Origin: an uncultured Candidatus Saccharibacteria bacterium
GTDB taxonomy: Bacteria; Patescibacteriota; Minisyncoccia; Phycocordibacterales; PALSA-1337
Direction of reading: 5' to 3'
NCBI GenBank assembly: GCA_964394505.1
Contig: CAYMXR010000001.1
Coordinates: 9,878 to 73,877 of the forward strand
DNA length: 64,000 nucleotides
Shown: positions 15,550-42,490 of the stretch, one piece after another
Numbering within the stretch: the stretch's first letter is position 1
Layout of the letters: every line of letters begins with the position of its first letter
Translations under genes and position numbers: made by a program
Notes under the pieces: model-generated
Databases searched by the model: none
What the model was told of the DNA's origin: nothing
The model's input: the letters and a program-made list of their open reading frames with translations, nothing else

Positions 15550-15581
15550 CACGCTTAGGTATTTCAATTTACAAAGTAACA

Positions 15582-15614: not shown

Positions 15615-15629
15615 ATTTGAGCACAAACC

Positions 15630-18851: not shown

Positions 18852-18885
18852 TATCACGCCTAGGTATTTCAATTTTCAAAGTAAC

Positions 18886-18920
18886 AAAAGACCCTGAGCA
18901 TGTCGAAGGGTTTTTTGTTA
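18886..18920 (+). terminator. Rho-independent terminator; copy 2 of the duplicated ~65-bp module (near-identical to 15547-15614)
   Basis: Same stem-loop sequence and flanks as the hup terminator. Confidence 0.65.
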
Positions 18921-19451: not shown

Positions 19452-19525
19452 TGGTGCGGGATGGGAGAATCGGACTCCCGACCACAGTTTGGAAAACTGT
19501 TATTATACCATTTAACTAATCCCGC
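19452..19525 (-). tRNA. tRNA-Gly (anticodon UCC); CCA is encoded
   Basis: Hand-folded cloverleaf: GCGGGAT acceptor stem, anticodon loop TTTCCAA. The T-loop reads TCCGATT (C at position 55), which is atypical. Confidence 0.6.
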
Positions 19526-19559
19526 TATTTCTAGTTAACAGCAAAATCAATACTAGCAA

Positions 19560-19994
19560 TTATTTGTTATTTTCGCCAGAATTATCGACAACTGCTTCTT
19601 TTATCTCCACGATATTCTTTTCTATCTCTTTTATTGTATTTTGAATTTCTTTAAGCTCAATTCCCTCTTCTTTGATCTCCTTTTCAGTCTTTTCTGCCAA
19701 TTTCTTTTCGCCACTCATACCACTGATGAGCACCGTATCGCCAATGAAATAAGAGACAAAGAGTCCTGAAGCTAGAAGTATCACGGTCACAATAACCAAG
19801 TTGTTTGGCTCATAAAATAACCAGCCCAACCAACCTCCTTGAGCTTGAAGCATGTCTGCTGTATGCCAGATCCCTCTCCAAAAAAGCACAATCGCTATGC
19901 CGCCAATAAATGTATACAAAATAGGGTGATGACTAAGACGCCCCCTCACTTTATCTTCAAATTTATCAAAATAATTAATTATTTTCTTAAACAT
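19560..19994 (-). CDS. Hypothetical membrane protein with a coiled-coil C-terminus
   Basis: Two TM helices. Confidence 0.45.
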   Translation of the reverse strand: MFKKIINYFDKFEDKVRGRLSHHPILYTFIGGIAIVLFWRGIWHTADMLQAQGGWLGWLFYEPNNLVIVTVILLASGLFVSYFIGDTVLISGMSGEKKLAEKTEKEIKEEGIELKEIQNTIKEIEKNIVEIKEAVVDNSGENNK

Positions 19995-20087
19995 AATTCA
20001 AATTGTAACATACTCATGCGTAAATTTCCCAAAGAAAAAGAGGTGCCTTATTTTTAAGATTTAAGATTTGAGATTTTATATTTAATG

Positions 20088-20160
20088 TCGGAGCGCCGGG
20101 ATTCGAACCCGGAGTCGCCTCTTCCCAAAAGAGGAATGTTAGCCGTTACACCACGCTCCG
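20088..20160 (-). tRNA. tRNA-Pro (anticodon UGG); CCA not encoded
   Basis: Cloverleaf folded by hand: anticodon loop TTTGGGA with G37, T-loop TTCGAAT, perfect D-stem. Confidence 0.8.
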
Positions 20161-20182
20161 ATAACAGAACTATCCTAGCACA

Positions 20183-20563
20183 TTACAAAATAATATTCTC
20201 TATCATCCTCACTTTTGCTTTTTTTGTCTCAAAATTGAGGTACACGCATATTACATGAAAAGCGAACTCAATTTCAAGTCCTTTATCATTTTCATCAAAA
20301 TAAGTTTGAACCATCTTGCGTATTTGCCTGATTTTCCAATTATCCACATTCTCTTCTGGTTTATGTCCATTGATAACAGTCGGACAATTGGAGACACTTT
20401 TGACTTCAATAAAGTGAATGAGACTGTCTTTGTTGGCGATAATGTCTATTTCACCCCATCTTTTCCTATAGTTTCTAGTTTCAATACAAAAACCATTTTT
20501 AACTAGATATTCACAGGCTATTCTTTCTCCAATTTCCCCTATTTTGCGTGTATTTTTGGTCAT
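20183..20563 (-). CDS. yraN: YraN-family (UPF0102) endonuclease
   Basis: GEIGERIACEYLVKNGFCIETRNYR...GEIDIIA...IHFIEVK motif pattern. Confidence 0.75.
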   Translation of the reverse strand: MTKNTRKIGEIGERIACEYLVKNGFCIETRNYRKRWGEIDIIANKDSLIHFIEVKSVSNCPTVINGHKPEENVDNWKIRQIRKMVQTYFDENDKGLEIEFAFHVICVYLNFETKKAKVRMIENIIL

Positions 20564-20596
20564 TTTTAACGCATTTAAGCCATTAAAGTCGTCTTT

Positions 20597-20626
20597 TATT
20601 CACATAATCCCCAAGCTTATCCACAG
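20597..20626. promoter_or_regulatory. Two DnaA-box 9-mers (TTATTCACA at 8/9, TTATCCACA at 9/9), 12 bp apart, 34-63 bp upstream of yraN
   Basis: Direct match to the TTATCCACA consensus. Confidence 0.35.
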
Positions 20627-20746
20627 TTGTCCATTACGAAATACTATTTTGAGCCATATATTACAGACAACAACTTTTCTTGTAGATAATAGAAAAATTC
20701 AAAATTGCAGAGCCACAATAGGCTTTCTTTGAGACTAACTTCCCTG

Positions 20747-20817
20747 TGCGGGTAGGGAGAATCGAACTCCCACCTCGTCCTTGGCAAGGACGCGTCCTAC
20801 CACTAAACGATACCCGC
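20747..20817 (-). tRNA. tRNA-Gly (anticodon GCC); CCA not encoded
   Basis: Anticodon loop TTGCCAA, T-loop TTCGATT, 7-bp acceptor stem GCGGGTA/TACCCGC. Confidence 0.8.
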
Positions 20818-21063
20818 CTACGCAAATTTAGACCTCCGGTCTAAATTCGCTACGGCGGGCAAGCCCGCTTTGTCCGTAGTAATCTAGAACGAATTAATTG
20901 CCTAAATAAGCAACAAAAGAAGTATACCGTAATAATATTTTTTTACAAATCTAAATGTGCTGGCACTACTACACTCCTCGCAAGCTCAGCGCTACGAAGT
21001 GCTGGCACTACGAAGCCCTACATCGCGCACCAGCACACTGGTGCGCGATTGCGGGCGAAGTAG

Positions 21064-21135
21064 TGCCCTCGGAGGGACTCGAACCCCCAACAGCGGTTCC
21101 GAAGACCGATGTGATATCCATTTCACCACGAGGGC
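21064..21135 (-). tRNA. tRNA-Arg (anticodon UCG); CCA not encoded
   Basis: Acceptor GCCCTCG/CGAGGGC, perfect D-stem, anticodon loop CTTCGGA, T-loop TTCGAGT; one mismatch at the base of the anticodon stem. Confidence 0.6.
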
Positions 21136-23419: not shown

Positions 23420-24000
23420 GTTAGCTATATTTGTAGCCATATACTACTATCGGACATAACATCATCTAGTTATCCACATAATGTCCTTTACACATTTTTG
23501 TATAAGACATAAAATAGTATAAGACCAGTTTGTCATCCGAGGAGATCGCAGAAATTTGTAAGAGAAAAAATATTTGTATTAAAAAATTAAATTCAAATAA
23601 TTTTTTAATTTCATTTACAGATTTCTGCGATCGAGGCAGACTATGTTCTTTATAAAAGTAAGGTAGGCTTCTACTCCTAGTTCGAGTGTGAAGTCGTCTC
23701 GAAACAATTTAGTTTTTGTGTTGACCCTCGTTTGCTTAGGCAAATGACGATGCGCTTGTTCTCACTTTTATTTTAGGCGCCCCCGTGGCGACCATTTAGT
23801 ACGACAACAGTGCGCACCGTCACCTAATGAGGAGACGTCCGGTCAATTTCGGATCCAACTTTTCGGATCCGCGGGTCCAAAAAACCCATTGTTCTTTAGT
23901 TTGTTAGCGTGAAGTCCGCGTTTCGAGAGGACTTAAAAAGCCGCGTGCACCTGTTCTCTCTGAACTGCGTATCACGCGGTTTTCTTTTTGGTTAATTTGA
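23420..24000 (+). other. Structured non-coding region and candidate ncRNA of unknown class. It holds a perfect DnaA box (23470-23478), a 17/18-nt inverted repeat (23541-23560 with 23616-23636), several GC-rich hairpins and a terminator-like stem (CCGCGTG...CACGCGG followed by TTTTCTTTTT near 23938-23998).
   Basis: 580 bp with no credible ORF, locally GC-rich hairpins and a 3' terminator. Confidence 0.3.
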
Positions 24001-26210: not shown

Positions 26211-26231
26211 TTACCCAGTAGTTCTCCGCGA

Positions 26232-26343
26232 AAGAATATCTCTCTCACAAAAATCCTGCGTATCCCGAGGAACTCCTCACTCCTTTGGTCGTTCGTCGCT
26301 CGGGAGAAATACTCGGATTTTCATGAGAGAGATATTCTTTCAC
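26232..26343 (+). promoter_or_regulatory. Long nested stem-loop (27-nt arms with 2 mismatches, plus an inner 7-bp hairpin) downstream of rpsO; a candidate terminator or RNase III processing site
   Basis: GAAAGAATATCTCTCTCACAAAAATCC paired with GGATTTTCATGAGAGAGATATTCTTTC. Confidence 0.5.
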
Positions 26344-28013: not shown

Positions 28014-28044
28014 CGCTTCCGGCGAGGTCGGACCTCGCCGGAAA
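28014..28044. repeat. Extended perfect palindrome TTCCGGCGAGGTC-G-GACCTCGCCGGAA (copy D), 10 nt upstream of the pnp ATG
   Basis: 13+1+13 palindrome. Confidence 0.8.
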
Positions 28045-28054
28045 CAACAAAAAA

Positions 28055-30205
28055 ATGAATAAAAAAGAATATACGCTCGAGATCGGTTCGAAAACTCTTA
28101 CAGCAGAGTTCAACGATATCACCGATCAGACAAACGGGGCAGTGATGCTTCGCTACGGTAACACCGTCGTCCTAGCCACAGCCGTCATGGGCAAGGAACC
28201 AAAAGATGGTGACTTTTTTCCACTTACAGTCGATTACGAGGAAAGGTTTTATGCCACTGGCAAGATTCTCGGTTCTAGATTTATGCGTAGAGAAGGTAGA
28301 CCTTCGACCGAAGCTATTCTCTCCGGAAGAATAGTCGACCGTACTATCCGCCCTCTCTTCAATCAAAAAATGCGTCACGAAGTACAGGTAGTGCTTACAA
28401 CATTGTCCATAGGCGATGAGGACGCAGATTCTGTTTCGGTTATTGCCGCTTCTCTTGCTCTAGGAACTTCTGATATTCCATGGAATGGACCAGCATCGGC
28501 CATCAGAATTGGAAAAAAGGAAACTTATGTTATCAATCCGGAAACCAAGGACCGTGAAGGTGCAGATGTAGCGTTGGACATGATCGCTTGCGGAAAAGAT
28601 GGCATGATCAATATGATCGAAGTCGGAAGTAAAGAGGTTAGCGAAGAAACAGTAAACGAGGCTCTTGCTATCGCTTCAACAGAAATCGAAAAAATCCAGA
28701 CTTGGCAAAAAAAGATCATTGCAGATATCGGAAAAGAAAAGAAGATTGTCGAATTGCCAGTTGCAACCGAGGGAACAAAAGAATTATTTGAGGCGGAGAT
28801 TGCTCCCAAATTGAAAAAGTATGTCTTCAGTGGTCCAGGGAAAAAGAAATTGGAAGAAATCACCGATGAGTGGATGAAAATATTTATAGAAAAATTCCCA
28901 GAAGGAAATACTGGCATGGCTATGGAAATATTTGAGGAAGCTGTAAACGACTTGCTTCACAATGAAGCGATCGAGAATGACAAACGCCCTGATGGCAGAA
29001 CAATGGACGAAGTCCGGCCACTATTTGCACGAGCTGGTGGCATATCACCAATTCTTCATGGTTCGGGAATATTTTACCGAGGTGGAACGCATGTTTTATC
29101 TATCCTTACACTCGGATCTCCCGGAGATGCTCTTCTCATCGACGGCCTCACCATGCAAGAAAACAAAAGATTTATGCACCACTACAACTTCCCACCATTT
29201 TCGACAGGAGAGGTTGGTCGCATGGGTGGAACAAATAGAAGAATGATTGGACACGGTGCTTTGGCAGAAAAAGCTTTATTGGCAGTCATACCAGACAAAG
29301 ATAAATTCCCATATACAATCCGTCTAGTGTCCGAAGCTTTGGCCTCAAACGGATCAACTTCAATGGGTTCGGTTTGCGGATCTACTCTCGCCCTCATGGA
29401 TGGTGGTGTTCCAATAAAAGCTCCTGTTGCTGGCATTGCATCTGGTCTTATGATGTCACCAAACTTTGCTCGAGACGGTAAATACAAAGTTCTTACTGAC
29501 ATCCAAGGCCCAGAAGATCATCATGGTGATATGGACTTCAAAGTCGCTGGTACTAGAAACGGGATCACGGCGGTCCAAATGGATGTTAAAGTTGGCGGTA
29601 TTCCTCTCAAAATCCTAGCTGAAGCTTTCGTCAAAGCCAAAAATGCCCGATCCAAAATTCTCGATGTTATAGAAAAAGAAATTCCTGCTTCTCGTGAAAA
29701 AATTTCTCCAAATGCTCCAGAAATTATTGTTATGAAAATAAAACCAGATCAGATTGGTTTAGTCATAGGCACTGGAGGCAAAACTATAAATGAAATTCGT
29801 GAGGTTACCAAAGTGGAAGATATAACCATAGAAGACGACGGGACTGTATTTATTACCGGTAAAAATGAAACTGCACAGAAAGCAAAAGATATCATCTATG
29901 GAATGACAAGGGAATATTTACCAGGAGAGAAATTTGACGGGGAAGTAGTCCGACTTATGGACTTCGGCGCTTTCGTAAAAATTGGACCAAATGCCGAAGG
30001 ATTGGTACATGTCTCAGAGATTGCCCCATTCCGCGTGGAAAGAGTTGAAACTTATATCAAGGAAGGGGACATCGTTCCTGTTGCGGTCAAAGAAAAAGAT
30101 GAAAAGGGAAGATTGAATCTATCGATCAAGAACGCAAACCCGACATTCTTTACTAAAAAAGAAGAGATGCCAAAACCAAAGTCAGAGTTTAAGAAAAGGT
30201 TTTAG
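28055..30205 (+). CDS. pnp: Polyribonucleotide nucleotidyltransferase (PNPase)
   Basis: 716 aa; two RNase PH domains, KH and S1 domains. Confidence 0.95.
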   Translation: MNKKEYTLEIGSKTLTAEFNDITDQTNGAVMLRYGNTVVLATAVMGKEPKDGDFFPLTVDYEERFYATGKILGSRFMRREGRPSTEAILSGRIVDRTIRPLFNQKMRHEVQVVLTTLSIGDEDADSVSVIAASLALGTSDIPWNGPASAIRIGKKETYVINPETKDREGADVALDMIACGKDGMINMIEVGSKEVSEETVNEALAIASTEIEKIQTWQKKIIADIGKEKKIVELPVATEGTKELFEAEIAPKLKKYVFSGPGKKKLEEITDEWMKIFIEKFPEGNTGMAMEIFEEAVNDLLHNEAIENDKRPDGRTMDEVRPLFARAGGISPILHGSGIFYRGGTHVLSILTLGSPGDALLIDGLTMQENKRFMHHYNFPPFSTGEVGRMGGTNRRMIGHGALAEKALLAVIPDKDKFPYTIRLVSEALASNGSTSMGSVCGSTLALMDGGVPIKAPVAGIASGLMMSPNFARDGKYKVLTDIQGPEDHHGDMDFKVAGTRNGITAVQMDVKVGGIPLKILAEAFVKAKNARSKILDVIEKEIPASREKISPNAPEIIVMKIKPDQIGLVIGTGGKTINEIREVTKVEDITIEDDGTVFITGKNETAQKAKDIIYGMTREYLPGEKFDGEVVRLMDFGAFVKIGPNAEGLVHVSEIAPFRVERVETYIKEGDIVPVAVKEKDEKGRLNLSIKNANPTFFTKKEEMPKPKSEFKKRF

Positions 30206-30206
30206 G

Positions 30207-30300
30207 AGAGAGGTAGGAGCTAAGAGGTAAGAGTTAAGAATTTAACACGCTGGGCTTTCCTCTTACCTACTAACTCCTACCTCTTAACTCTAACTCTCTG
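30207..30300 (+). terminator. Large imperfect hairpin with ~40-nt arms built from GTAAGAG/CTAAGAG-like 7-mers; probable pnp terminator
   Basis: GAGAGAGGTAGGAGCTAAGAGGTAAGAGTTAAG pairs with CTTAACTCTAACTCTC... downstream. Confidence 0.5.
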
Positions 30301-30301
30301 T

Positions 30302-30307
30302 TATAAT
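30302..30307 (+). promoter_or_regulatory. -10 TATAAT 6 nt upstream of the ATG at 30314 (leaderless)
   Basis: Consensus hexamer. Confidence 0.35.
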
Positions 30308-30313
30308 ATACGC

Positions 30314-31651
30314 ATGAGTGATGACCCTATCTTAAACAAACCAGCACTAGACATGACAAGTACCGATACGGACAATGATGCCGCCGAAGAAAATGCCGGC
30401 CCAAAAATATTCGACATTACTCCTGATCTCAATATTGCACCAGCGAAAGACGAGGTAACAGAAGATACCACCAAGATAAATGCCGCTCAAATTCTTGAGA
30501 GCATATCAAAAAAACCAGAAGTTGCCCCTGTGCCAGAAGAACCAAAACCAACCGTGTTGCCTGCTTTTGGCCCCGCAAACCCACCTGCAAAAACCGTCGG
30601 TTTCAGTAGACCATTGGTCACTGGAGAAGTAGAAAAAAAAGCTAGAACATTGCAACAAGCTATCAGTGAAAATATAGATCCATTATCTCAAAAACGAAAG
30701 ATGCCTGAGATCCATCCAGACCTAAAATCTATCCGAACCTATGAAAAAGATTTCGCCGAGGCTATATCAAAAAAGCACATATCTACAGCATCATTCGTAA
30801 TAGCAGAAGACAAAAAGAAAGTAGCGGATCTAGCAACAGACTCTTCTATAGATGAGAGAACTGGACAGCCAAATACAAAAATTTCCAAAAATTCATCCAG
30901 CAAAAAATGGTTTTTGGGTATTACTAGCCTGATTTTAATTTGCGGAGCTTTGTTTTCTGGTTATTATCTTTACTCAAATAGTTCACTAGCCCCAGTCAAA
31001 CAGCCAACAGACACGACCAACAATTCACCCCTTATACCAAACTCAATAATCAAGCCAGATAGTAAGTCGATAATCAATATCGACAATAAAAGACAGAGCG
31101 AGATAATATCGACAACCAAAGATGAGATAAGCAAAGACCAGACCAAAGACTCTATTAAAGAAATTGTTTTTATCCAACAAAAAGGGAACGATCAGGTTAA
31201 GGTTACAGCAAATGACATACTAAAGACCATGAATATAAGTGCTCCGGATATCTTCCAAAGATCTCTCGGTTCAGATTGGATGTTAGGTGTCTATACTGGA
31301 GAGCTTGGACAAAAAAATGCATTCGTAATCACAACCAACGACTTTTTCCAAAACGCTTTTGCAGGAATAATTCAATGGGAAAAAACACTTCCTGAAGACC
31401 TTAAACAATTCCTATACTCACCAATAGTAGGACAGGACGGATCATCGACCTCAACAACAAGTTATACTTTGCGTGGCAAATTTGAGGACCGCCTTATATT
31501 AAACAAAGATGTTCGGGAATACGTAACAGATAATGGACATATCATGTTCTTGTATTCATTTATAGGTAATGACAAATTGGTAATTACAAACAACGAAGAA
31601 GCGCTGCAGGAGATCATTACAAGACTTGAAAATAATACTCCTGTAAGGTAA
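30314..31651 (+). CDS. Hypothetical membrane-anchored protein (acidic, disordered N-terminus, one TM, C-terminal globular domain)
   Basis: TM WFLGITSLILICGALFSGYYLY. Confidence 0.45.
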   Translation: MSDDPILNKPALDMTSTDTDNDAAEENAGPKIFDITPDLNIAPAKDEVTEDTTKINAAQILESISKKPEVAPVPEEPKPTVLPAFGPANPPAKTVGFSRPLVTGEVEKKARTLQQAISENIDPLSQKRKMPEIHPDLKSIRTYEKDFAEAISKKHISTASFVIAEDKKKVADLATDSSIDERTGQPNTKISKNSSSKKWFLGITSLILICGALFSGYYLYSNSSLAPVKQPTDTTNNSPLIPNSIIKPDSKSIINIDNKRQSEIISTTKDEISKDQTKDSIKEIVFIQQKGNDQVKVTANDILKTMNISAPDIFQRSLGSDWMLGVYTGELGQKNAFVITTNDFFQNAFAGIIQWEKTLPEDLKQFLYSPIVGQDGSSTSTTSYTLRGKFEDRLILNKDVREYVTDNGHIMFLYSFIGNDKLVITNNEEALQEIITRLENNTPVR

Positions 31652-31660
31652 AATACCGTC

Positions 31661-32023
31661 ATGAATAAAAAAGATTTAGAATATTTCAAAGCTAAATTAT
31701 TGGCAGAGAAATCTCAGTTGGAAGAAGAACTTTCCGAAGTTGCCTACAAAGATCCATCGCTAGCACAAGGGTGGGAGGCTACATCCGGAGGAATGGTTGT
31801 TGATTCTGCAGATGACAATGAAGTTGCCGATAAATTTGAAGAAATGGAGGGTAACAAAGATGTCACTGACAAACTTGCTGTTCAATTGGAAATGGTAAAC
31901 TCTGCTCTAGAAAACATCGATTCAAACACTTACGGTATTTGCCGTACTTGCAATAAGCCTATTGAAAGGGGTCGCCTCGAAGCAAATCCTTCTGCAAAAG
32001 GTTGCGTTGTGCATTCAAGCTAA
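31661..32023 (+). CDS. DksA/TraR-family zinc-finger protein
   Basis: Coiled-coil N-terminus plus C-terminal CRTC...GC motif. Confidence 0.55.
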   Translation: MNKKDLEYFKAKLLAEKSQLEEELSEVAYKDPSLAQGWEATSGGMVVDSADDNEVADKFEEMEGNKDVTDKLAVQLEMVNSALENIDSNTYGICRTCNKPIERGRLEANPSAKGCVVHSS

Positions 32024-32090
32024 GATTTTCTTCATCGTTTCTTTATCAGAAATTCATCAGGATTTTATCTCTCTTTGATATTATCCATCC

Positions 32091-33614
32091 ATGGGTTTAG
32101 CAAAATCATTTAGCGCCCAACTTGTCGGACTAAAATCCGAGGTGGTGAATATCGAGGTAGATATAACAAATGGTCTACATTCTTTTTCTGTGGTTGGATT
32201 GGGCGATAGAGCAGTAGAAGAATCAAAAGACCGCATTGCAGCTGCGATCAAAAACAGCGGTTTCGTCTCGCCGAAACAGAAAAATCAAAAGATCGTCATA
32301 TCATTGGCACCAGCAGACATTCGCAAAGAAGGGCCATCTTTCGATCTTGGCATGGCCCTATCTTACCTTTTGGCAAGTGAAGAGATAGATTTTGAACCAG
32401 AAGGAAAACTGTTTTTGGGCGAATTGTCACTTGAGGGTAGGCTTTGCAAAATACATGGCATATTACCAATCTTATGTCAGGCCAGATCTCAGGGTTTTAC
32501 CGAGGCATATATTTCCATGGATAATTCAGAAGAGTCCTCACTTGCGGAAGACATAACAGTCTATCCAGCCAGATCACTAAATGAAGTCATCGAACATCTT
32601 ACAGGAAAAAAAATTATTAGCCCAAATCCGAAAAAATATATTTCGAATGACACAAAAGATGAAAAAGATCTTGATATGTGTAACATAAAAGGCAACGAAG
32701 TGGCAAAAAGGGGTCTAGAGATAGCCGCTGCAGGTGCACACAACATCATAATGTGTGGACCGCCAGGTACAGGCAAGACCATGTTAGCCAAATCATTTTC
32801 TTCTATACTTCCAGACCTTTCGTATGAACAAGCAATAGAAGTCACCAGTATCCATTCTGTCGCCCAAAATCTAAACAAAGGTTTTATTCACAAACCACCT
32901 TTCCGCTCTCCACATCATACAGCCTCTTATCCATCTATCGTTGGGGGTGGAGGATTCCCAAAACCAGGGGAGATCACCCTTGCTCATCGAGGAGTTTTAT
33001 TTCTAGATGAATTCCCAGAGTTCCACAAAAGTGTTATCGAAGCTCTTCGTCAACCACTTGAAGATCGAATCATTACAATATCAAGAGCTAGGGGAGTAAT
33101 AACCTTTCCTGCCCAATGTATTTTGATAGCATCTATGAATCCTTGTCCTTGTGGAAAGGGTAGTGGCAACGGCTGTACCTGTACAATGAAATCATTAGGA
33201 GCCTATCAGCACAAAATATCTGGGCCAATATTCGACCGACTAGATGTTTGGTTGAATATCAACAAAATAGACTACGCAAAATTATCAAACAAAGAATCAA
33301 ATGCAGAAAAATCTATAACGATAAGAGAACGAGTGATCAAAGCAAGGGAAATTCAAAAAAGACGATTTGCTTCAAATAACATAAATAAGATTTTTAATTC
33401 CGAAATGAGTGCTTCCGATCTCGAAAACATTATCAATATAGAAGAGAGCGCGCGGTCCACTCTGACAAAATCAGCAGAAAAAATGGAGTTATCTGGAAGA
33501 TCTTTTCACCGAATTATAAAAATGTCCCAGACCATCGCAGATCTAGCAGGATCAGAATCCATAACAAATGAGCATATACTAGAGGCTTTGCAGTATAGAC
33601 AAAAAATACTCTAG
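32091..33614 (+). CDS. comM: YifB/ComM family Mg-chelatase-like AAA+ ATPase
   Basis: Lon-like N-terminal domain, Walker A MCGPPGTGKTM, and a C-terminal ChlI-type domain. Confidence 0.85.
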   Translation: MGLAKSFSAQLVGLKSEVVNIEVDITNGLHSFSVVGLGDRAVEESKDRIAAAIKNSGFVSPKQKNQKIVISLAPADIRKEGPSFDLGMALSYLLASEEIDFEPEGKLFLGELSLEGRLCKIHGILPILCQARSQGFTEAYISMDNSEESSLAEDITVYPARSLNEVIEHLTGKKIISPNPKKYISNDTKDEKDLDMCNIKGNEVAKRGLEIAAAGAHNIIMCGPPGTGKTMLAKSFSSILPDLSYEQAIEVTSIHSVAQNLNKGFIHKPPFRSPHHTASYPSIVGGGGFPKPGEITLAHRGVLFLDEFPEFHKSVIEALRQPLEDRIITISRARGVITFPAQCILIASMNPCPCGKGSGNGCTCTMKSLGAYQHKISGPIFDRLDVWLNINKIDYAKLSNKESNAEKSITIRERVIKAREIQKRRFASNNINKIFNSEMSASDLENIINIEESARSTLTKSAEKMELSGRSFHRIIKMSQTIADLAGSESITNEHILEALQYRQKIL

Positions 33615-33624
33615 TTGCTTGGGA

Positions 33625-34704
33625 CTAATGACATGCTCCACTAGCAAAAGGATTTCGTGCTCCACGAATTTCGTAATGAAGATGTGGTCCAGTGGTCATA
33701 CCAGAGATACCGATATATCCAATCTTATCACCCTTTGAGACTTTGTCCCCAACATCTACTATACTTTTCTGCATATGGGCGTATAGAGTCTGAGTTCCAT
33801 TATTATGAGAAATAACAATAAAATTACCGTAACCACCATTCCATGTTCCGTTTGATTTGCTGATCATAACCACTCCATCAGCCGAAGCTAAAATCGGAGT
33901 ACCGACTGGCGCGGCCAAATCAATGGCGTTGCGACCATGCAGAGACTGAGACAATCTTGCGCCATAAACTGGACAATTGTAGTAACCGGCATATGAAGGA
34001 AGTTTGCTAATATTTACTAGCAAAGGATCATCCGGCACAATCATTCCATTCAATGCCCGAACCACGACCGATGAAGTGGTAATGTCTCCATCAGGAATAA
34101 TTATACTTTGGCCAACGACTAGCTTGTTAGACGAATCGAGATCATTGTAATTGTAAATTTCGTTTACATCGGCCCTAAATTTCTTTGCGATGCTTACAAC
34201 CGTATCATCCTTTCGAATTGTGTATTTAACTCCAGTAACAGGCAAAATTGTTAAAGTTTGGCCGACTTTAATAGTTGATTTGCTATTGAGGTCGTTTGCC
34301 CAAAGAACGGTGTTTCTCGACACATTAAACATCTTGGCTATACTTGCAATCGTATCACCTTCTTGAACTGTATATATACTAATCAAGTTGGAAGGTTTTG
34401 TTGACTCTGACGAGTTGGTACTGGCAATATCAGCAATCAATGTCTCGCCACCAGAAACCGGTACAGCATCAAAGGCTTTGTCCGGATTAGGGTCGATATT
34501 AACGGCCGCCATAGGTAACACCGCTCTTGAAGAATAAGTGAGAGTCTCGACACTGACTTTTGCAGATGCTTTTTCTCCTGGGAAGATAGAAGAAAAAAGA
34601 CCGGCATGAACGGTCGACACTGACATCATAGCAACAACCAAAGAGCAGGAAATGACTGCAAGAAAATTGCTTAACTTATTTATCTTTTTTAGAATTAATT
34701 GCAT
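33625..34704 (-). CDS. LysM-domain M23 family peptidoglycan endopeptidase
   Basis: Two LysM repeats (YTVQEGDTIASIAKMF, YTIRKDDTVVSIAKKF) and the M23 HxxxD/HLH motifs (GPHLHYEIR). Confidence 0.8.
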   Translation of the reverse strand: MQLILKKINKLSNFLAVISCSLVVAMMSVSTVHAGLFSSIFPGEKASAKVSVETLTYSSRAVLPMAAVNIDPNPDKAFDAVPVSGGETLIADIASTNSSESTKPSNLISIYTVQEGDTIASIAKMFNVSRNTVLWANDLNSKSTIKVGQTLTILPVTGVKYTIRKDDTVVSIAKKFRADVNEIYNYNDLDSSNKLVVGQSIIIPDGDITTSSVVVRALNGMIVPDDPLLVNISKLPSYAGYYNCPVYGARLSQSLHGRNAIDLAAPVGTPILASADGVVMISKSNGTWNGGYGNFIVISHNNGTQTLYAHMQKSIVDVGDKVSKGDKIGYIGISGMTTGPHLHYEIRGARNPFASGACH

Positions 34705-34981
34705 AACAATATTTATATCTTGGCAATAGCAAACATCGATCTCTTGTCCTGTTTTTAAGATATTCTTACAGATAAAAATGGCTCTAATTGGCCATATTTA
34801 TTATTCAATCCATGATGGATCTATTTAGGTTATCAATAAGGACTTTATTGTCAATGATTGCTATACACAGATATTTTATTTGCATACCTGTCAAAAATTA
34901 TTGGGTGATTAGTATTCTGGTATTGTCCGGATTCAAAGGTTAGTCTTTTGTTAGAGTCTGCGCGATCAACTGTGTTAAACT

Positions 34982-36922
34982 ATGCCAATGCCATCACTAA
35001 ATGAAGCTCAGGAGCGAGCAGTAAGCACAACCGAGGGTCCGGTTTTGATCGTGGCTGGGGCCGGAACAGGCAAGACCAGGGTCATTACCCACAGAATCCT
35101 AAATCTGATCAAGGCGGGTACAGCACCTCATTCTATTTTAGCCATTACTTTTACCAACAAAGCGGCAAGCGAGATGCGCGAAAGAGTCTTACATCTGATT
35201 TCAGAAGACCAAGACCTCAATCTACCAGTAACTATGAATGAACGGCCTTTCGTTAGTACTTTTCACTCTCTTGGTGTCCATATCATCAGAGAAAACGCCT
35301 CTTTGTTAGGACTTACAAGACATTTCACTATATTCGATCGAGGAGACTCAAAAAGGGCAATCAAGGAGTCTTTGGAGCAATCATCTTTGGATCCAAAACA
35401 ATACGATCCTGGAACAATCTTAAACATGATTTCTCGTGCAAAAGGGGAAGGTCTCGGGTATTTGGAATATCGAGATCATGCAAAAGGATATATGGAAGAG
35501 ATTGTCTCTCAAGTCTGGGAAAAATACGATGCAATATTGAGCAAAGAAAAAGCTTTGGACTTTGATGATCTGCTTCTAAAGACAGCCTCTCTATTAGAAA
35601 AAAATCAAGATGTTCGGAAACATTACGGTTCAATCTGGAAATATATCCACGTTGACGAATATCAAGATACCAACCGAGTTCAATACAAGATCGCAAAATA
35701 TCTCGCTGAATATCATCACAATATTTGTGTCGTTGGTGATGCGGATCAAAATATATATAGCTGGAGAGGTGCAACGATAGAAAATATTCTAAACTTTGAA
35801 AAAGATTATCCAGAAGCAACTATTATTACTCTAGAAAAAAACTATCGCTCAACAAAAAACATCTTATCAGCCGCCAATAATGTTATAGAAAAAAACAGGC
35901 AGAGGAAGAAAAAGACTTTGTTTACCGATAACGATAGTGGAGAAAAGATCTCTCTATCAGTTTCTTACACCGAGCAAGACGAGGCAAGAAATATAGCGGA
36001 TATGACGCGAGACCTTGTCGAAAAAGGCATATCGGCTAGAAATATAGCCGTTCTTTATCGAACAAACTTCCAATCACGAGTGCTAGAAGAATACTTCATA
36101 AAAAAGAACTTGCCATACCAACTTGTTGGTGTCCGATTTTTCGAAAGAAAAGAAATAAAAGATGTTCTATCTTACATCAAAGCTTCACTAAACAGAGATA
36201 GTTGGAATGATATCGGAAGAATTATCAATGTCCCAGTTCGTGGAATAGGGAAGGCTACTGTAGCAAAGATAATGTCAAAGAGAGAAGATCTATTACCAGA
36301 AGGAATGCGGGTCAAAATCAATAACTTTTGGAAATTACTCGATGATATTAATAAAGAAATAAAAGAGAAAAAACCATCGGAGGTGGTAAAATTTGTGATA
36401 GAAGAAACTGGATTGGAAAAATCTTTGCGTGATGGTACGGCGGAGGATGAAGAAAGATTATTGAACATCCGAGAACTAGTAACAGTGGCAACGGGCTATG
36501 ATCATTTGCCCGGCGAAGAAGGTATCGAATCATTTCTGACAAATTCGGCTCTAGCATCAGATCAAGATGATCTCGAAAGAGATACTGATGCTGTGAAACT
36601 GATGACGGTTCATGCTTCTAAGGGTCTAGAATTTGAATATGTTTTTATTGCCGGAATGGAACAAGATCTGTTTCCGTTTAAACATTTACAAGAGGAAAAT
36701 ATCAACGAATCAGAAGAAGAGGAGGAACGACGGCTCTTTTATGTGGCCCTAACAAGGGCCAAAAAGAAGGTTTTTCTTAGTTATACGATCATAAGAAGCA
36801 TATATGGAGCCCAAAAAGTGAATACTCCCTCGGAATTTATCGATGATATAGAGAAAAGTCTAATTGAAGAGGCGGTGCCAGATAAACCAAGTGGGGCAAA
36901 AGCGCTATTCATAGATTTTTGA
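34982..36922 (+). CDS. pcrA: ATP-dependent DNA helicase, UvrD/PcrA/Rep family
   Basis: Motif I AGAGTGKTRVITHRI, motif II DEYQDTN, and the remaining SF1 helicase motifs. Confidence 0.9.
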   Translation: MPMPSLNEAQERAVSTTEGPVLIVAGAGTGKTRVITHRILNLIKAGTAPHSILAITFTNKAASEMRERVLHLISEDQDLNLPVTMNERPFVSTFHSLGVHIIRENASLLGLTRHFTIFDRGDSKRAIKESLEQSSLDPKQYDPGTILNMISRAKGEGLGYLEYRDHAKGYMEEIVSQVWEKYDAILSKEKALDFDDLLLKTASLLEKNQDVRKHYGSIWKYIHVDEYQDTNRVQYKIAKYLAEYHHNICVVGDADQNIYSWRGATIENILNFEKDYPEATIITLEKNYRSTKNILSAANNVIEKNRQRKKKTLFTDNDSGEKISLSVSYTEQDEARNIADMTRDLVEKGISARNIAVLYRTNFQSRVLEEYFIKKNLPYQLVGVRFFERKEIKDVLSYIKASLNRDSWNDIGRIINVPVRGIGKATVAKIMSKREDLLPEGMRVKINNFWKLLDDINKEIKEKKPSEVVKFVIEETGLEKSLRDGTAEDEERLLNIRELVTVATGYDHLPGEEGIESFLTNSALASDQDDLERDTDAVKLMTVHASKGLEFEYVFIAGMEQDLFPFKHLQEENINESEEEEERRLFYVALTRAKKKVFLSYTIIRSIYGAQKVNTPSEFIDDIEKSLIEEAVPDKPSGAKALFIDF

Positions 36923-36947
36923 TTGTTTCGTTGTGCCAATCGTTCCG

Positions 36948-37088
36948 TGTGCCATGTTTTCTCAACCACGATCGGCTCTGCTCGAATAACAGAAACCTCG
37001 CAGAGCCGTCTCTTCTCGCGCCACCTTTTATTGTGTTCAACTCACTCTTCAGTGGCGCTCCGAAGGGGTTTCGAAAACATGGCACACT
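36948..37088. other. 141-nt three-stem structured element: a perfect 15-bp outer stem GTGTGCCATGTTTTC/GAAAACATGGCACAC enclosing 9-bp and 7-bp inner hairpins. Candidate small ncRNA or MITE-like element.
   Basis: Perfect long-range inverted repeat plus internal hairpins in the uvrD-ksgA spacer. Confidence 0.35.
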
Positions 37089-37175
37089 CCACTCTGGCAC
37101 AACGAAAACGATCAAAATCATTTATTGTGACGATAAAAACTAAAACTGGATAGTTATTCACATCGATCATTTTTA

Positions 37176-37979
37176 ATGTATGATAAAGAAACGATGTATT
37201 TACAAGCCAAAAAATCGCTGGGGCAACATTTTCTCAATTCCAGACATGTTTTGGATATTATCATTGAGTGTGCCGAAATTGAAAAAGGGGAACAAATTCT
37301 TGAGATAGGTCCGGGAACAGGAATATTAACGGAAGCATTACTTCTGGCGGGTGCAAATGTAATAGCGATCGAAAAAGATGATCGAGCAATAGATCTACTA
37401 AATGAAAAATTTAGAGGACAAATTTCTTCGAAGCAACTACAAATTATTCGTGGAGATGTTTTGGAAAACACTCCAGACGACCTACCAAAAGACACTTTCA
37501 AAGTTGTTGCCAATATTCCTTACTATATTACCGGAGCAATATTAGAAAAATTTTTAGAAGGCGAGACGAGGCCAACCTCTATGGTTTTATTAGTTCAAAA
37601 AGAGGTAGCCGAAAGGATAGTAGCGCGTGACAGAAAAGAAAGCGTACTTTCTATCTCGGTAAAAGCTTTTGGCGAACCGCGCCTGATCGCAAAAGTCCCA
37701 AGGGGGGCTTTCACACCACCACCAACCGTTGACTCGGCCATTTTGGCTATAGAAAATATTTCTGATGGATTATTTGTAAAGAATGGCCTAGACATAAAGC
37801 GTTTTTTTGAAATAGTCAAAGCCGGTTTTGCTCACAAAAGAAAGTTTGCGATAAGAAATTTGGAAACGGTAGTAGAAAAAGAAAAACTAGAAAAAATTTG
37901 GGAGGCTAGGGGCTATGACCCCAAAATTAGACCTGAAGACATGGCCGTAGGGGACTGGATTGGAATCATACAAGATTAA
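37176..37979 (+). CDS. rsmA: 16S rRNA (adenine1518/1519-N6)-dimethyltransferase
   Basis: LGQHFL...EIGPGTGILT...NIPYYIT. Confidence 0.9.
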   Translation: MYDKETMYLQAKKSLGQHFLNSRHVLDIIIECAEIEKGEQILEIGPGTGILTEALLLAGANVIAIEKDDRAIDLLNEKFRGQISSKQLQIIRGDVLENTPDDLPKDTFKVVANIPYYITGAILEKFLEGETRPTSMVLLVQKEVAERIVARDRKESVLSISVKAFGEPRLIAKVPRGAFTPPPTVDSAILAIENISDGLFVKNGLDIKRFFEIVKAGFAHKRKFAIRNLETVVEKEKLEKIWEARGYDPKIRPEDMAVGDWIGIIQD

Positions 37980-38085
37980 GCTTTTCACTTGAATACCAAA
38001 AGATCACAGACAGATCTAGAGGGACCGCCCACTGTCCACAGAATATAATAATAAAACTGAGTAATTTGCTATAATTGTGATTAGC

Positions 38086-38973
38086 ATGGCAAAAACCTAC
38101 CCGCAGAAACAAACTTTAGTGATTTTTATTGTTTGCGTTATTTTTGTGGCTGGAACTGCGACTTACATTTACGGTTGGCCCTCAACAAAAAACTCCATAA
38201 AATATAGAAATTCCAGTATTCAGCCACAGATAGTAACAAATAATACCAGTACCGGCCCGGAGTCAGACTGGCAAAATCAATTTATTGATGGCAAAGCTAG
38301 CACAACCTTTAGATACGATCCGGTAACACAGAAGAATCCGAAAGCTGGGGTACCAATAAACCCAACTGAAGAATTGGGTCGGGATTTTTTTACAAAATAT
38401 GTCGAATTAAGACAATCAGGACTTAATACGGATGCCAAGACTGTTGATAATGTGGCTACTCAATTAATTAAGGAAAGTGCCTCCAAAATATCGAAACCAA
38501 AAGCATACACTTCCAAAGATATAACTATTGTTCCTGTGGGAACTGGAGTAAACGCAACAAAAATTTACGCTGAAAATCTAGTGGGAATTCTAAAATCATG
38601 GATGCCTGTCAAAAACGAAGCTGAGATTGCCATGGAGGCTTTCGAGGCGGGAGATATGACTTTGTTAAAAGGCATAGACACTGTAATTGCCGGATACAAA
38701 AACGCTGTAACAAGGTTATTGGAGACACCAGTTGTACAGCCCCTAGCCGAAAGTCATCTTGATCTTATAAACGCTATATCTATGCAGACATTCAATGCTC
38801 AAGGGTTAAGAAATTCTGATACAGATCCACTTACCGGTCTAGCAGCCATAAGCCTGGAAGTAAAGAGTTTGGAAGCGATTGCTACCGCTATAGGAAAGAT
38901 GCAAAGTTACTTTGCTTCATCAGGTATTGTATTTAATCTTCCAGTTTCTGGATCAATTCTTCAAAGCCAATAA
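38086..38973 (+). CDS. Hypothetical signal-anchored protein; first gene of the T4SS-like cluster
   Basis: N-terminal TM LVIFIVCVIFVAGTATYIY. The track start at 38077 is a GTG; the ATG at 38086 lies 10 nt after a TATAAT. Confidence 0.4.
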   Translation: MAKTYPQKQTLVIFIVCVIFVAGTATYIYGWPSTKNSIKYRNSSIQPQIVTNNTSTGPESDWQNQFIDGKASTTFRYDPVTQKNPKAGVPINPTEELGRDFFTKYVELRQSGLNTDAKTVDNVATQLIKESASKISKPKAYTSKDITIVPVGTGVNATKIYAENLVGILKSWMPVKNEAEIAMEAFEAGDMTLLKGIDTVIAGYKNAVTRLLETPVVQPLAESHLDLINAISMQTFNAQGLRNSDTDPLTGLAAISLEVKSLEAIATAIGKMQSYFASSGIVFNLPVSGSILQSQ

Positions 38974-38974
38974 C

Positions 38975-40576
38975 ATGTTCAATAATACAATTAGAAAACT
39001 TCAAAAACCCGTTTCCGTCATAATGATATTATCTGTACTACTAATCTCTGTACCAAAACAAACTTTTGCAATCCTCGGTGCTGGCGATACGGTAGTAGTT
39101 GTTGGAGATGTAAGTCCTACAGGAATAACAAACTTTGTCAATCATACTCTGATCAAACTCAAGGAGTTTGTGCTCGACAAAATGGCCACCATGTTAATGA
39201 AGCAAATATTGCATCAAATGACCATGGAAGTTGTTAACTGGATCAATGGAGGCTTTCAGGGAAGCCCTGCATTTCTCACAAACCCAGGAGCATTTTTTCT
39301 AGAGGCAGCCGATCAAGTAACTGGCGCTTTTTTGGCCACAAACGGCCCACTTTCTTCACTTTGTTCACCGTTTGCCATTGACATCCGATTAGCATTGGCA
39401 CTAAGTAAGACATCTATGCTTAATCAGCGATATACATGTACCCTTGGAAAAATTATCCAGGCACAAAAAAACGGTCCGGATATAATCGTGAACGGACAAG
39501 TTGTTCGCTCTTCTCAGGGTTCTATGAATGGATTCCTGCGAGGAGACTTCAATCAAGGTGGATGGCCTGCATTCATTGCTCTCACGACTGAACCCAAAAA
39601 CAATCCCTACGGGGCTTTCCTGTCTGCTGAAGCAGACTTAAACGCAAGAATAAATGCAAAACAAGCAACAATTAGGGCCGATATCCAGCTCGGCCAGGGT
39701 TTCATGTCATGGCAAAAATGTTCAGACATACCTGGAGGAACAGTTGATGCTGAAGACGATTACCAAGTTAATACAGTAGAAAGTATGGTAGGTGTTGACC
39801 CTTCAATCAACCGAAAGGTTAACAAAGACGGAACGATAACATATCAATCTTGCGAAACCCAGACACCTGGATCTGTCATTGCGGGTACCCTACAAACACA
39901 CCTCAATGTTCCAGTGGTAGAACTAGAGCTGGCAGACGACATAAATGCGATCATAAATGCTCTGTTTACAAAAATGACATCGACAATAATTTCTGGTGGA
40001 TTAGGAGCATTGAGTGGTAATTCTGGTGCGGGACCATCGTACACGCAACAAGTAATAGATGAAATAGGTACGGCACAAGTAGATCAGGGGACTTTGGACA
40101 ATTTACAGAATGATATCGGACCAGCAATTCAGAAAATCGATTCATATGTATCGATTTATAAAAAAGCCATAGAAGTGCTATCAGAAACAAAAAACAAATT
40201 TATGGTCGCCAGAAAATGCTTTAGCGATAAGTCGGCAAGCGAGTACGCAGGAAACAAGTTATCAGAAATTGATCTAATAATAAATTCTGATATCAATACA
40301 TCAATCGCCTCAATTGAGGCAAGTATCGCATCCGCAATGGCAGATAGAAAAAAGCTTGAGGATATGTCTCTTACCCTTGCCGGCACAGGTTCTCCAAAGA
40401 AAGTTCAGGCTCAGGCCGAAAGATACTCCCAATTCGTTCAAAGTGGTGGCTTGGATATTCAGTCAAAAATCCAAGTTGCCGAAACCATGCTTGAAAATGC
40501 CCAGAAAAAAGCCAAAGATCTTGATATGAAGGCCACCTTGTTACAACTTGAGTGTTACAGAATGGTTACACCGTAG
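38975..40576 (+). CDS. Hypothetical secreted protein (signal peptide)
   Basis: MFNNTIRKLQKPVSVIMILSVLLISVPKQTFA; the track start at 38912 is extended. Confidence 0.45.
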   Translation: MFNNTIRKLQKPVSVIMILSVLLISVPKQTFAILGAGDTVVVVGDVSPTGITNFVNHTLIKLKEFVLDKMATMLMKQILHQMTMEVVNWINGGFQGSPAFLTNPGAFFLEAADQVTGAFLATNGPLSSLCSPFAIDIRLALALSKTSMLNQRYTCTLGKIIQAQKNGPDIIVNGQVVRSSQGSMNGFLRGDFNQGGWPAFIALTTEPKNNPYGAFLSAEADLNARINAKQATIRADIQLGQGFMSWQKCSDIPGGTVDAEDDYQVNTVESMVGVDPSINRKVNKDGTITYQSCETQTPGSVIAGTLQTHLNVPVVELELADDINAIINALFTKMTSTIISGGLGALSGNSGAGPSYTQQVIDEIGTAQVDQGTLDNLQNDIGPAIQKIDSYVSIYKKAIEVLSETKNKFMVARKCFSDKSASEYAGNKLSEIDLIINSDINTSIASIEASIASAMADRKKLEDMSLTLAGTGSPKKVQAQAERYSQFVQSGGLDIQSKIQVAETMLENAQKKAKDLDMKATLLQLECYRMVTP

Positions 40577-40591
40577 AGATTCCATTAACCT

Positions 40592-42490
40592 ATGAAAATG
40601 AGATTACTAAAAAAATACATACCGCTCATAATCTGTTTGTTTGTCCTGCAGACGGATTTCGCTTTTGCACAAGGTGATATAGCAAAGATTTTTGCATTTA
40701 CTGGAATTGTTGAATTAGCTGACTCCGTAGTAGCCATATTTGCCAATATGGCAATGACGGTAGCGAGCTGGTTACTCATAGCTGCGGGGTATATTTTGGA
40801 CATCTCCATTCAATTGACTCTAAATATCAAAGGTTTTGTAAAAGCTACACCAGCAATCTTCACGGTTTGGAAAAGTCTAAGAGATATTACTGGTCTATTT
40901 TTCATCTTCTATTTGTTATACGCAGCAATACAGATGATGACTGGCTGGGGAAAGGAGAGTTATGGATCAACAATCAAAAATATTGTTATTGCTGGAGTCT
41001 TGATTAACTTTAGTTTCTTTATTGTCAGTTTTGGTATCGATGTCTCCAACATTACCTCCCAAGCTCTTTACGGTGCGATGGTACCAAACAAAGTTATTGT
41101 AAAAATCGACGAGAATGCCAGTATCCAAACTCTGGTGAGTAATGCAGGCAAGTCAGACATTTCAAATATCTTCATGAACACTTTGCGTATCCAATCGATA
41201 TACGACACAAAAGGAAACAAACTTGGCACAGAGATAGGGAATCCGATCAAAACAACTCTTATCGGCATCACTGGTGTAATAATGATGATTACCACTGCGG
41301 CAAGCTTTATCCTCGCAGCCTTGGCATTTATTGCCCGTCTAGTTATTTTGCTATTCCTCTTAGCATTTTCTTCTATTTGGTTTGCCAGCATGGTGATACC
41401 GCAATTAAAAGAAGCCGGCAGCAAATTCCAAGGCGCTCTTATGTCACAACTGCTTTTTATGCCAGCCTATCTGCTCCTCATGTATGTTGCTTTGTCGATA
41501 ATCAATGGTAGTACCATATTCCGTGCTGGGGTGATAGACGGCGCTGCAGCGGGTATCACCGGATCAAATTGGATAATGCCGTATATTATACTTCTGGTAA
41601 ATTTTGCCATCATAATATTTATTTTAAACCTACCCCTCGTGGTTGCGCTTAGTATGGGTGGTTATGCTACCAGCTGGTTCAAGGGCTCGATAGACAAATG
41701 GGACGCATTGAAGGTGTGGAGGAATGTTGGGGGATGGGCGAAAGATAATGCCTGGAGAGGTACCGGTGGCCGAGTCGCAAGCACATTAGCCAAAAGTGAA
41801 GGCCTTAAGAACATTGCTGCTAAAAGCAAATTTGGCGAGCTTGTCTTAAAAGGAGTGCGAGGTGCCGGTGGAAGTTACGATAAGAAACTTGCTGAACAGG
41901 TTGAAGCGAGAACTAAGTTTGCAGAATCACTTGGTGCAAATGAAGGAGAGATAATTGGAATTAAAAAGAAATACAGATCACTCATAGAAAATGCTCTTAC
42001 ACAAGAAAAGCGGGCAAGATCAATGGGTGACACGGTAGCCGCGGATAGATACAAGGCATACGCTGAAAATCTTAAAAAGCAACTTGGCGTAGACTTAGTA
42101 AATAAACAAAAAGAAAGACAAGTAAGTTATGCCGAAAGGATTTCTGATCCTGGTATTCTTAGTACATATCCTAATTTGTGGACAAAAGTTGCCAGAAAAG
42201 ACAAGGTGGCGGCAGCTAAAATCAATATCGATGTATGGCAAAAACAACTAGATAAGAAAAAAGAGGCTGTAACTAAGATAAAACAAGATCTGGAACGCAT
42301 TAAAACAGATATAAGAAGGGAAAAGGCAGCCCGCGGTGGCGTCGTCAGTAAAATAAATGAGGACGAACAAAACAAACTTGAACAAAAGTTAAAAGAAGCA
42401 ACTACTAACCCAAGTCACGGAGGTGATGTTGATGCGATGGGTACAGACGATCTTCAGGACTTGATTGATCAGGAAAAATTAACTAAATAA
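40592..42490 (+). CDS. VirB6/TrbL-like polytopic membrane protein (signal peptide, ~8 TM helices, C-terminal charged coiled-coil)
   Basis: Topology and size resemble T4SS VirB6/TrbL proteins; no sequence motif is decisive. Confidence 0.45.
   Translation: MKMRLLKKYIPLIICLFVLQTDFAFAQGDIAKIFAFTGIVELADSVVAIFANMAMTVASWLLIAAGYILDISIQLTLNIKGFVKATPAIFTVWKSLRDITGLFFIFYLLYAAIQMMTGWGKESYGSTIKNIVIAGVLINFSFFIVSFGIDVSNITSQALYGAMVPNKVIVKIDENASIQTLVSNAGKSDISNIFMNTLRIQSIYDTKGNKLGTEIGNPIKTTLIGITGVIMMITTAASFILAALAFIARLVILLFLLAFSSIWFASMVIPQLKEAGSKFQGALMSQLLFMPAYLLLMYVALSIINGSTIFRAGVIDGAAAGITGSNWIMPYIILLVNFAIIIFILNLPLVVALSMGGYATSWFKGSIDKWDALKVWRNVGGWAKDNAWRGTGGRVASTLAKSEGLKNIAAKSKFGELVLKGVRGAGGSYDKKLAEQVEARTKFAESLGANEGEIIGIKKKYRSLIENALTQEKRARSMGDTVAADRYKAYAENLKKQLGVDLVNKQKERQVSYAERISDPGILSTYPNLWTKVARKDKVAAAKINIDVWQKQLDKKKEAVTKIKQDLERIKTDIRREKAARGGVVSKINEDEQNKLEQKLKEATTNPSHGGDVDAMGTDDLQDLIDQEKLTK

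Follow-up and report, generated by a model that had tools for sequence, protein, structure and literature searches.

A lineage-specific nested hairpin element in the uvrD-ksgA spacer of an uncultured Candidatus Saccharibacteria bacterium

Repeats such as ERIC/IRU, Correia and BOX/RUP are imperfect-to-perfect palindromes of 100-200 bp that occupy spacers just past stop codons. Repeats of the ERIC, Correia and BOX type are co-transcribed with a neighbouring gene, form long RNA hairpins that can alter mRNA stability or processing, and vary in presence from strain to strain. Stable, irregular double-stranded structures are also found between co-directional genes as the RNase III hairpins and REP-type 3' stabilisers of the phage T7 early region and of E. 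coli operons, where they set transcript ends and protect the upstream message. Finally, template switching at quasi-palindromes is a documented source of perfect stems, and it also repairs them (PMC8794818).

The element described here lies between uvrD and ksgA in an uncultured Candidatus Saccharibacteria bacterium. The window, i.e., the whole stretch of DNA that was analysed, is 64,000 nucleotides long, and the element is referred to below as element A, to set it apart from two others (B and C) that occupy the corresponding spacer in relatives. At a probability of roughly 0.4, element A is best read as a dispensable, lineage-specific, non-coding structured spacer element, which would serve as a hairpin at the uvrD 3' end or transcript boundary and whose arms would be kept by copying together with selection.

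Architecture and genomic setting of the element

The features of the spacer and of its two neighbours are as follows, with the parts of the element given without strand:

34982-36922, plus strand: uvrD/pcrA-type helicase gene (Pfam UvrD-helicase, 6e-86; UvrD_C, 1.5e-72)
36926-36938: P0 5' arm, TTTCGTTGTGCCA, of the outer perfect 13-bp helix
36947-36961: P1 5' arm, GTGTGCCATGTTTTC, of the perfect 15-bp closing stem
36964-36967/37067-37070: P2 helix, AACC/GGTT, with a UC/UC internal loop between P2 and P1
36973-37008: hairpin 1, a 9-bp stem CGGCTCTGC/GCAGAGCCG (36973-36981/37000-37008) with an 18-nt loop
37011-37066: hairpin 2, a basal 5-bp helix (37011-37015/37062-37066) plus a 7-bp stem
37018-37024/37052-37058: hairpin 2 stem, GCGCCAC/GTGGCGC, 7 bp, with a variable 27-nt loop
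37054-37072: conserved block, GGCGCTCCGAAGGGGTTTC, comprising the hairpin 2 3' arm, junction and P2 3' strand
37073-37087: P1 3' arm, GAAAACATGGCACAC, of the perfect 15-bp closing stem
37095-37107: P0 3' arm, TGGCACAACGAAA, of the outer perfect 13-bp helix
37108-37170, plus strand: AT-rich tail of about 60 nt, gained or lost together with the hairpin and holding, at 37157-37162, the -35-like TTCACA of the promoter-like site of ksgA
37176-37979, plus strand: ksgA/rsmA (Pfam RrnaAD, 2e-50)

A preliminary description had named the flanking genes uvrD and ksgA, and Pfam agrees, finding a UvrD/PcrA-type helicase and RsmA/KsgA. Between them it had placed a three-way-junction-like element with a perfect 15-bp closing stem around two hairpins of 9 bp and 7 bp. 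The element is indeed present there, its P1 arms are exact complements, and both inner hairpins are found in the sequence; only the position given, 36948-37088, needs to be shifted by 1 nt to match the arms. Overlooked at that time was the second, outer helix P0, with which the whole nested element extends over about 36926-37107, or about 182-185 nt. It begins 4 nt past the uvrD stop codon and lies upstream of a promoter-like site of ksgA. Pairing in hairpin 1 reaches 11 pairs (36970-37010).

The three-way-junction-like character of the element is borne out by a fold far past chance and by compensatory changes in relatives that preserve it (see below). Folded as RNA, positions 36920-37125 reach -90.8 kcal/mol on the plus strand (z -12.8) and -98.1 kcal/mol on the minus strand (z -10.0), with none of 200 shuffles as stable in either case, and a fold of the element with DNA parameters gives z = -9.4. 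Its GC content is 49-52% (about 50%), compared with 31-41% (about 38%) in the flanks. The window contains 5 perfect inverted repeats whose arms measure 15 bp or more and whose loops fall between 20 and 200 nt, where 400 Markov simulations predict 0.005; with the arm length lowered to 12 bp or more and the loop range unchanged, the count is 10, where 0.97 would be expected and none of 200 simulations exceeded 5. These fold z-scores and simulated repeat frequencies together establish that the element is real and not a product of chance. An assembly artefact is ruled out by the occurrence of the same element in independent NCBI, JGI and Logan assemblies.

The two helices of element A are among the 10 inverted repeats, most of which lie in spacers and each of which has a unique sequence; thus, element A is one instance of a genome-wide habit rather than a one-off. 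Other long-range perfect inverted repeats occur at 26230-26341, 60316-60440, 60526-60645 (with an inner hairpin at 60567-60604), 4797-4910 and 23544-23632; these other spacer repeats have arms of 12-18 bp and loops of 65-94 nt and form long rods with z of about -5 to -6. The 64 kb of the window also contain five members of a family of short, GC-rich, REP-like hairpins, GGCGAGGTC-N-GACCTCGCC (11990-12011, 12083-12104, 12322-12343, 28018-28039 and 62402-62423), two of which form a 21-bp inverted pair at 11992-12105. Motifs rich in TGCAAAGTG are found in both orientations in three spacers (2646-2679, 4796-4813, 4883-4917 and 15034-15117) and may be binding sites or promoter elements.

Within element A, the hairpin 1 loop GAAACCUC (36992-36999) reads as complementary to the conserved junction strand GGGGUUUC (37065-37072), giving 8 pairs on the plus strand, one of them a G-U that becomes an A-C mismatch on the minus strand. 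The complementarity is retained in weaker form in the related locus L002 and could represent a pseudoknot or an alternative pairing.

Downstream of the element, a promoter scan places a -10-like TATGAT at 37179-37184, 9 nt before the ATG at 37194. The listed ksgA ORF starts at the ATG at 37176, and the genes of relatives start at the ATG equivalent to 37194, which is the probable true start. Since the -10-like box sits 9 nt before the ATG where relatives' genes start, ksgA probably relies on start signals of its own and has an almost leaderless message. The region of this box, TGTATGAT, is kept in the closer loci, empty sites included. Over 36700-37400, the scan revealed neither a promoter nor a terminator specific to the element on either strand; it found no intrinsic terminator, and no T-run (U-tract) follows the structure on either strand. 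Canonical A-tract/stem/T-tract terminators do occur in other parts of the window, among them those at 15577-15615 and 6192-6227. Farther upstream of uvrD lie genes for PNPase, a DksA-type zinc finger protein, a ComM-like protein and a LysM-M23 peptidase.

A 71-nt direct repeat, 94% identical between 15545-15615 and 18850-18920, has at its end a terminator, AAAAACCCT...AGGGTTTTT, that is canonical and bidirectional, from which it follows that the genome uses ordinary intrinsic terminators elsewhere. Four tRNA genes are clustered on the minus strand at 19455-21135, and a 30-nt imperfect inverted repeat (21004-21067) adjoins the last of them.

Short overlapping ORFs cross the spacer, as had been noted earlier, and code for 62-76 aa. 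They are not conserved, and 1-nt indels in L002 break their frames. An ORF of 126 aa called over the element in the related locus L013 finds only itself among 5.8 billion proteins. The lack of a conserved ORF argues against a protein-coding gene.

Turnover and conservation of the spacer among relatives

By its KsgA homologues, which carry names such as Pacebacteria and Taylorbacteria, the organism falls among uncultivated Patescibacteria (CPR). Exact look-ups of KsgA homologues yielded twelve distinct syntenic uvrD-ksgA loci. The spacer takes the following states:

L013 (KsgA 93% identical to that of the window), L041 (76%), L002/L001 (78%) and L012 (69%; the contig begins inside the element): element A present
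L010 and L047 (sharing one boundary) and L046 (with a different boundary): empty spacer, 8-17 nt from the uvrD stop to the ksgA -10-like box
L003/L004 and L011: 5' half of A replaced by element B, 3' half of A still present
L043/L045: element B followed by other sequence
L042, 1244-1417: element C
L005, 2427-3000: a spacer of 574 nt in which the uvrD 3' end is duplicated and a small ORF occurs

The uvrD-ksgA spacer is, therefore, a hotspot of turnover. The three empty loci represent two independent boundaries, and since L010/L047 and L046 manage without any element, whatever function it has is dispensable. Read against a neighbour-joining tree of KsgA, the simplest history would have element A ancestral to the clade, with two or more subsequent losses and with B written over it in some lineages.

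Element B (L003:2756-2877, L011:1-103 and L043:982-1115) occupies the same post-uvrD position. It is a nested palindrome whose sequence is unrelated to that of A. Its closing stem is perfect over 22-23 bp and encloses two hairpins, likewise perfect; the first of these is a 24-bp DNA palindrome that has no gap and has TGCA at its centre. In its closing stem and hairpin 1, 11 pairs differ between copies and pairing is still perfect. Element C consists of 45-bp perfect arms set 84 nt apart, with a 12-bp hairpin within, and its sequence is unrelated to both A and B. Like A, both B and C place a long perfect closing stem and inner hairpins directly past the uvrD stop. Elements A and B also have a layout in common, namely a long P1, a 2x2 UC/UC internal loop, a P2 of 4-5 bp and two hairpins, and their junction sequences are unrelated.

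Other oddities were seen in these loci. In L005, a direct duplicate of the last ~45 nt of uvrD lies beside a short inverted copy that forms a hairpin, and the minus strand of the spacer has an ORF for a hydrophobic product of 118 aa. L043 has extra spacer material at 1189-1389 with a 66-aa minus-strand ORF. In L047 (1048-2984), uvrD is split into two ORFs of 303 and 228 aa, which reflects either a frameshift or pseudogene, or an assembly error.

The preliminary description had named compensatory base changes in homologous loci as a check on the element, and these were found. The four full copies of A yield 59 consensus pairs. Pairing holds in 99.1% of cells, and both partners have changed in 5 of the 59 pairs, a result that none of 500 column shuffles reached, in a sample of about 3 independent lineages with a full or half copy. 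The L041 copy cannot be counted as a separate one, since it lies in a ~320-nt recombination tract common to L041 and the lineage of the window. Slid-alignment controls gave only 37-52% paired. The compensatory changes include C-G to T-A in P0 (L041), C-G to T-A in P1 (L002), and A-T to T-A in hairpin 2 (L002 and L012); the hairpin 1 stem is invariant in all four full copies.

Sequence identity is distributed unevenly along the element. Between the window and L002, it amounts to 91% in the stems and 87% at junction and internal-loop positions, compared with 83% in the hairpin 1 loop, 46% in the hairpin 2 loop, 65% in the tail and 63% at ksgA four-fold sites. The hairpin 2 loop is 46-50% identical between lineages, and the tail is 54% identical between the window and L012, two loci whose 3' core matches at 86% against 42% at four-fold sites. 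The 19-mer GGCGCTCCGAAGGGGTTTC is identical in the window, L013, L041, L002, L012 and L003, with one change in L011, and it survives in L003 and L011 without its pairing partners, the 5' half of the element being gone there. It occurs once in the window, even with 3 mismatches allowed. Identity of 87-91% beside a drifted loop, tail and synonymous sites indicates that stems and junction are under purifying selection and that at least one loop is not. Likewise, the core of element B, TTCGAGGCCGC...TTAATCCTCGGA...CCTGTGGAGCCTCTCA, is identical between L003 and L043, where four-fold sites are saturated (38%).

Could such a pattern belong to an independent gene for a small structured RNA, acting in trans or by binding protein, with the three-way junction as its core? 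A GC-rich structured island in an AT-rich genome, covariation, a conserved junction with variable loops, and the possible plus-strand pseudoknot GAAACCUC/GGGGUUUC kept in L002 would all suit this explanation. It is nonetheless unlikely, given that the element has no promoter or terminator of its own in the scan of either strand, is absent or half-deleted in close relatives, contains almost no G-U pairs and carries no strand signal; moreover, very long perfect helices are atypical of trans-acting bacterial RNAs. Rfam offered no match to the element at E <= 10. At the gathering threshold, the whole window returned 4 tRNAs only; the permissive search (E <= 10) of 36850-37200 gave chance-level matches that fall outside or across the element; and the elements of relatives returned nothing. 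The Rfam scan proposed in the preliminary description has thus assigned element A to no family.

Ribozymes typically pair a conserved junction with variable stems and loops. The element could accordingly be taken for a new self-cleaving, catalytic or processing RNA motif, the more so as the three-way junction is conserved, with helices and loops free to vary, in both A and B, and as the two share the layout of P1, UC/UC loop, 4-5-bp P2 and two hairpins. This is highly improbable, however. No hammerhead, twister, pistol, hatchet or HDV-like model matches, reading of both strands revealed no hammerhead core (CUGANGA/GAAA), A and B bear no resemblance in junction sequence, and helices free of G-U suggest a constraint at the level of DNA. 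As for named candidates, a hammerhead or other ribozyme core is ruled out by the absence of the motifs. A broader version, in which A and B would form an undescribed Patescibacterial class of three-way-junction RNAs with a protein-recognised or catalytic junction and functionally required perfect stems, is quite unlikely. If that were true, the stems, hypervariable yet always perfectly paired, would serve, for example, a double-strand-specific nuclease rather than being a mutational by-product.

Mobility, maintenance and a possible role at the uvrD 3' end

Presence/absence polymorphism with clean empty sites, long terminal-like inverted repeats, different elements at the same site, and an L041 copy that is 97-98% identical to that of the window between flanks of only 76-90% could all point to a non-autonomous mobile element, a MITE or ERIC/Correia-like repeat, inserted after uvrD. 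The preliminary description had named two possibilities, a MITE and a processed structured RNA. The latter is still a candidate; the evidence now makes mobility of the MITE kind quite unlikely. Other copies were looked for, as had been suggested there, in the window and in 13 related loci, and none was found: repeat and mismatch searches of the 64-kb window (~6% of the ~1-Mb genome), BLAST against ~50 kb of related loci, and, for diverged copies, a covariance model built from the four copies (run on the window and 13 loci) all failed to reveal a second one. The 19-mer had only chance matches, in unrelated high-GC contigs, among GTDB species genomes and JGI metagenome contigs, collections that are evidently without the lineage. 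The cores of A and B had no match in viral contigs, and distant BLAST against phages and plasmids was equally negative.

The structure of the site argues in the same direction. Comparison of the filled site with the empty sites of L010/L047 and L046 gives a present/absent unit of about 36923-37163. The inverted repeat is not terminal in this unit, since a 55-nt non-repeat tail lies outside it. No target-site duplication is seen between the filled site and the two kinds of empty site, which differ in boundary, and both T-runs that flank the insert are already in the empty L046 site. Among the 10 genes at 28055-42490, Pfam identifies none for a transposase, reverse transcriptase or integrase, there is no transposase within ~9 kb, and the KsgA tree fits ancestral presence with later losses.

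The near-identical L041 copy is likewise no sign of horizontal spread of the element, which is ruled out by an ordinary recombination tract that runs into ksgA: over 36945-37266 (element plus ksgA 5' end), the identity of L041 to both the window and L013 is 97-100%, as expected of homologous recombination. L013 is ~99% identical to the window except in a 100-nt patch, 37267-37366, where identity is 67%. The pattern is one of mosaic recombination.

Several further candidates were set aside on specific grounds. An integron attC site is ruled out by the lack of R''/R' cores; a retron, DGR, TIGR or omega/bridge RNA by the lack of a partner gene within ~9 kb; and a replication origin or terminus by the lack of a skew switch.

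The stems themselves bear on how the element is maintained. In elements A, B and C and two other hairpins of the window, there are 0-5 G-U pairs per 51-79 pairs on either strand, and the structured feature described here has 2-5 per roughly 63-68 pairs on each strand. L002 has two uncompensated changes that leave G-U on opposite strands, on the plus strand in P0 and on the minus strand in P1, so that neither strand is favoured by G-U pairs or by uncompensated changes. L002 also shows a mirrored 1-nt deletion on both P1 arms. Between the two copies of B, double changes number 11 and single-sided ones 1, and there are mirrored indels as well. Mirrored symmetry that is Watson-Crick only is the expected product of arm-to-arm copying in replication, and such DNA-level copying would yield the same covariation signal as conserved RNA pairing.

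Taken to its limit, this line of thought makes the element selfish or neutral palindromic DNA that arose by template switching or inverted duplication at a hotspot, is corrected arm to arm, is lost through deletions that the hairpin stimulates, and has no function in the cell. Stems almost purely Watson-Crick on both strands, indels mirrored on both arms, three unrelated palindromes and two kinds of empty site in one spacer on a shallow tree, the duplicated uvrD 3' end within the L005 spacer, and a window enriched in unique long perfect inverted repeats would all be natural outcomes, and the mechanism is documented (PMC8794818). This reading is nevertheless rather unlikely, as the unpaired junction is kept (87%, with the 19-mer invariant) against a loop and tail that drift to 46-65%, and as the B core stays identical between L003 and L043 despite saturated four-fold sites. 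Arm-to-arm copying cannot conserve unpaired junction bases, which lie beyond its reach, and some selection on sequence is therefore also needed.

The preferred reading, a structure at the uvrD 3' end, combines both influences. For transcription and its strand, for boundary function, and for template switching as the maintaining mechanism, we infer the following. The element would be transcribed with uvrD as the 3' end of its message and, once transcribed, would fold very stably and act as a transcript-boundary or stabilising structure, either by blocking a 3' exonuclease or read-through or by offering a double-strand-specific processing site. Immediately beyond the element, the promoter-like site of ksgA would drive that gene's expression. 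The arms would be held perfectly Watson-Crick by template switching and selection for folding, and the hairpin would stimulate its own deletion, which is proposed to explain its patchy presence in close relatives.

Support for this transcript-boundary role comes from the position after the uvrD stop, from the ksgA -10-like box that is conserved even where the element is missing, and from B and C, which would be functional analogues at the same site. Against it stand the three empty relatives and the lack of a U-tract on either strand; in addition, a model in which any stable hairpin would do fails to predict the strict conservation of the junction sequence.

Comparison with known systems

Among described RNAs, 6S RNA and other rod-like small RNAs resemble element A in their length of ~180-190 nt, long closing helix and high stability. 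Element A differs in having a three-way junction where they have a central bubble, in lacking an Rfam 6S match, in being missing from close relatives, and in having no promoter or terminator that the scan could find; the wrong architecture and patchy presence rule out 6S RNA. True MITEs possess terminal repeats and target duplications, whereas element A has no duplication and its repeat is not terminal. The quasi-palindromes generated by template switching (PMC8794818) are alike in their perfect stems, multi-base mirrored compensatory changes, new inverted repeats and hairpin-associated deletion; they represent a mutational mechanism, however, and not a functional class, and they leave the conserved unpaired junction unexplained.

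As a mere mark of a transcript boundary, or as a self-maintaining palindrome, element A would be a local curiosity. It is, at the same time, a clean natural example of perfect nested hairpins that are born, kept, swapped and deleted at a single spacer in the reduced genomes of CPR bacteria, and it cautions that apparent covariation can arise from arm-to-arm copying of DNA. If their conserved junctions prove to be catalytic or sites of recognition, A and B would count as novel RNA motifs, and this in a phylum where non-coding RNA has hardly been explored.

Two systems remain closest. Element A matches the RNase III and REP-type sites in position and in its rod of ~30 bp, but those sites are simple hairpins of 40-60 nt, and element A is a three-way junction of ~180 nt with a conserved junction. 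The ERIC, Correia and BOX repeats exist as many dispersed copies per genome, in contrast to the one copy seen here; like them, element A behaves as a spacer palindrome that follows a stop codon and varies in presence. In its behaviour, the element most resembles the ERIC/Correia/BOX-type palindromes and the intercistronic hairpins of the RNase III/REP type.
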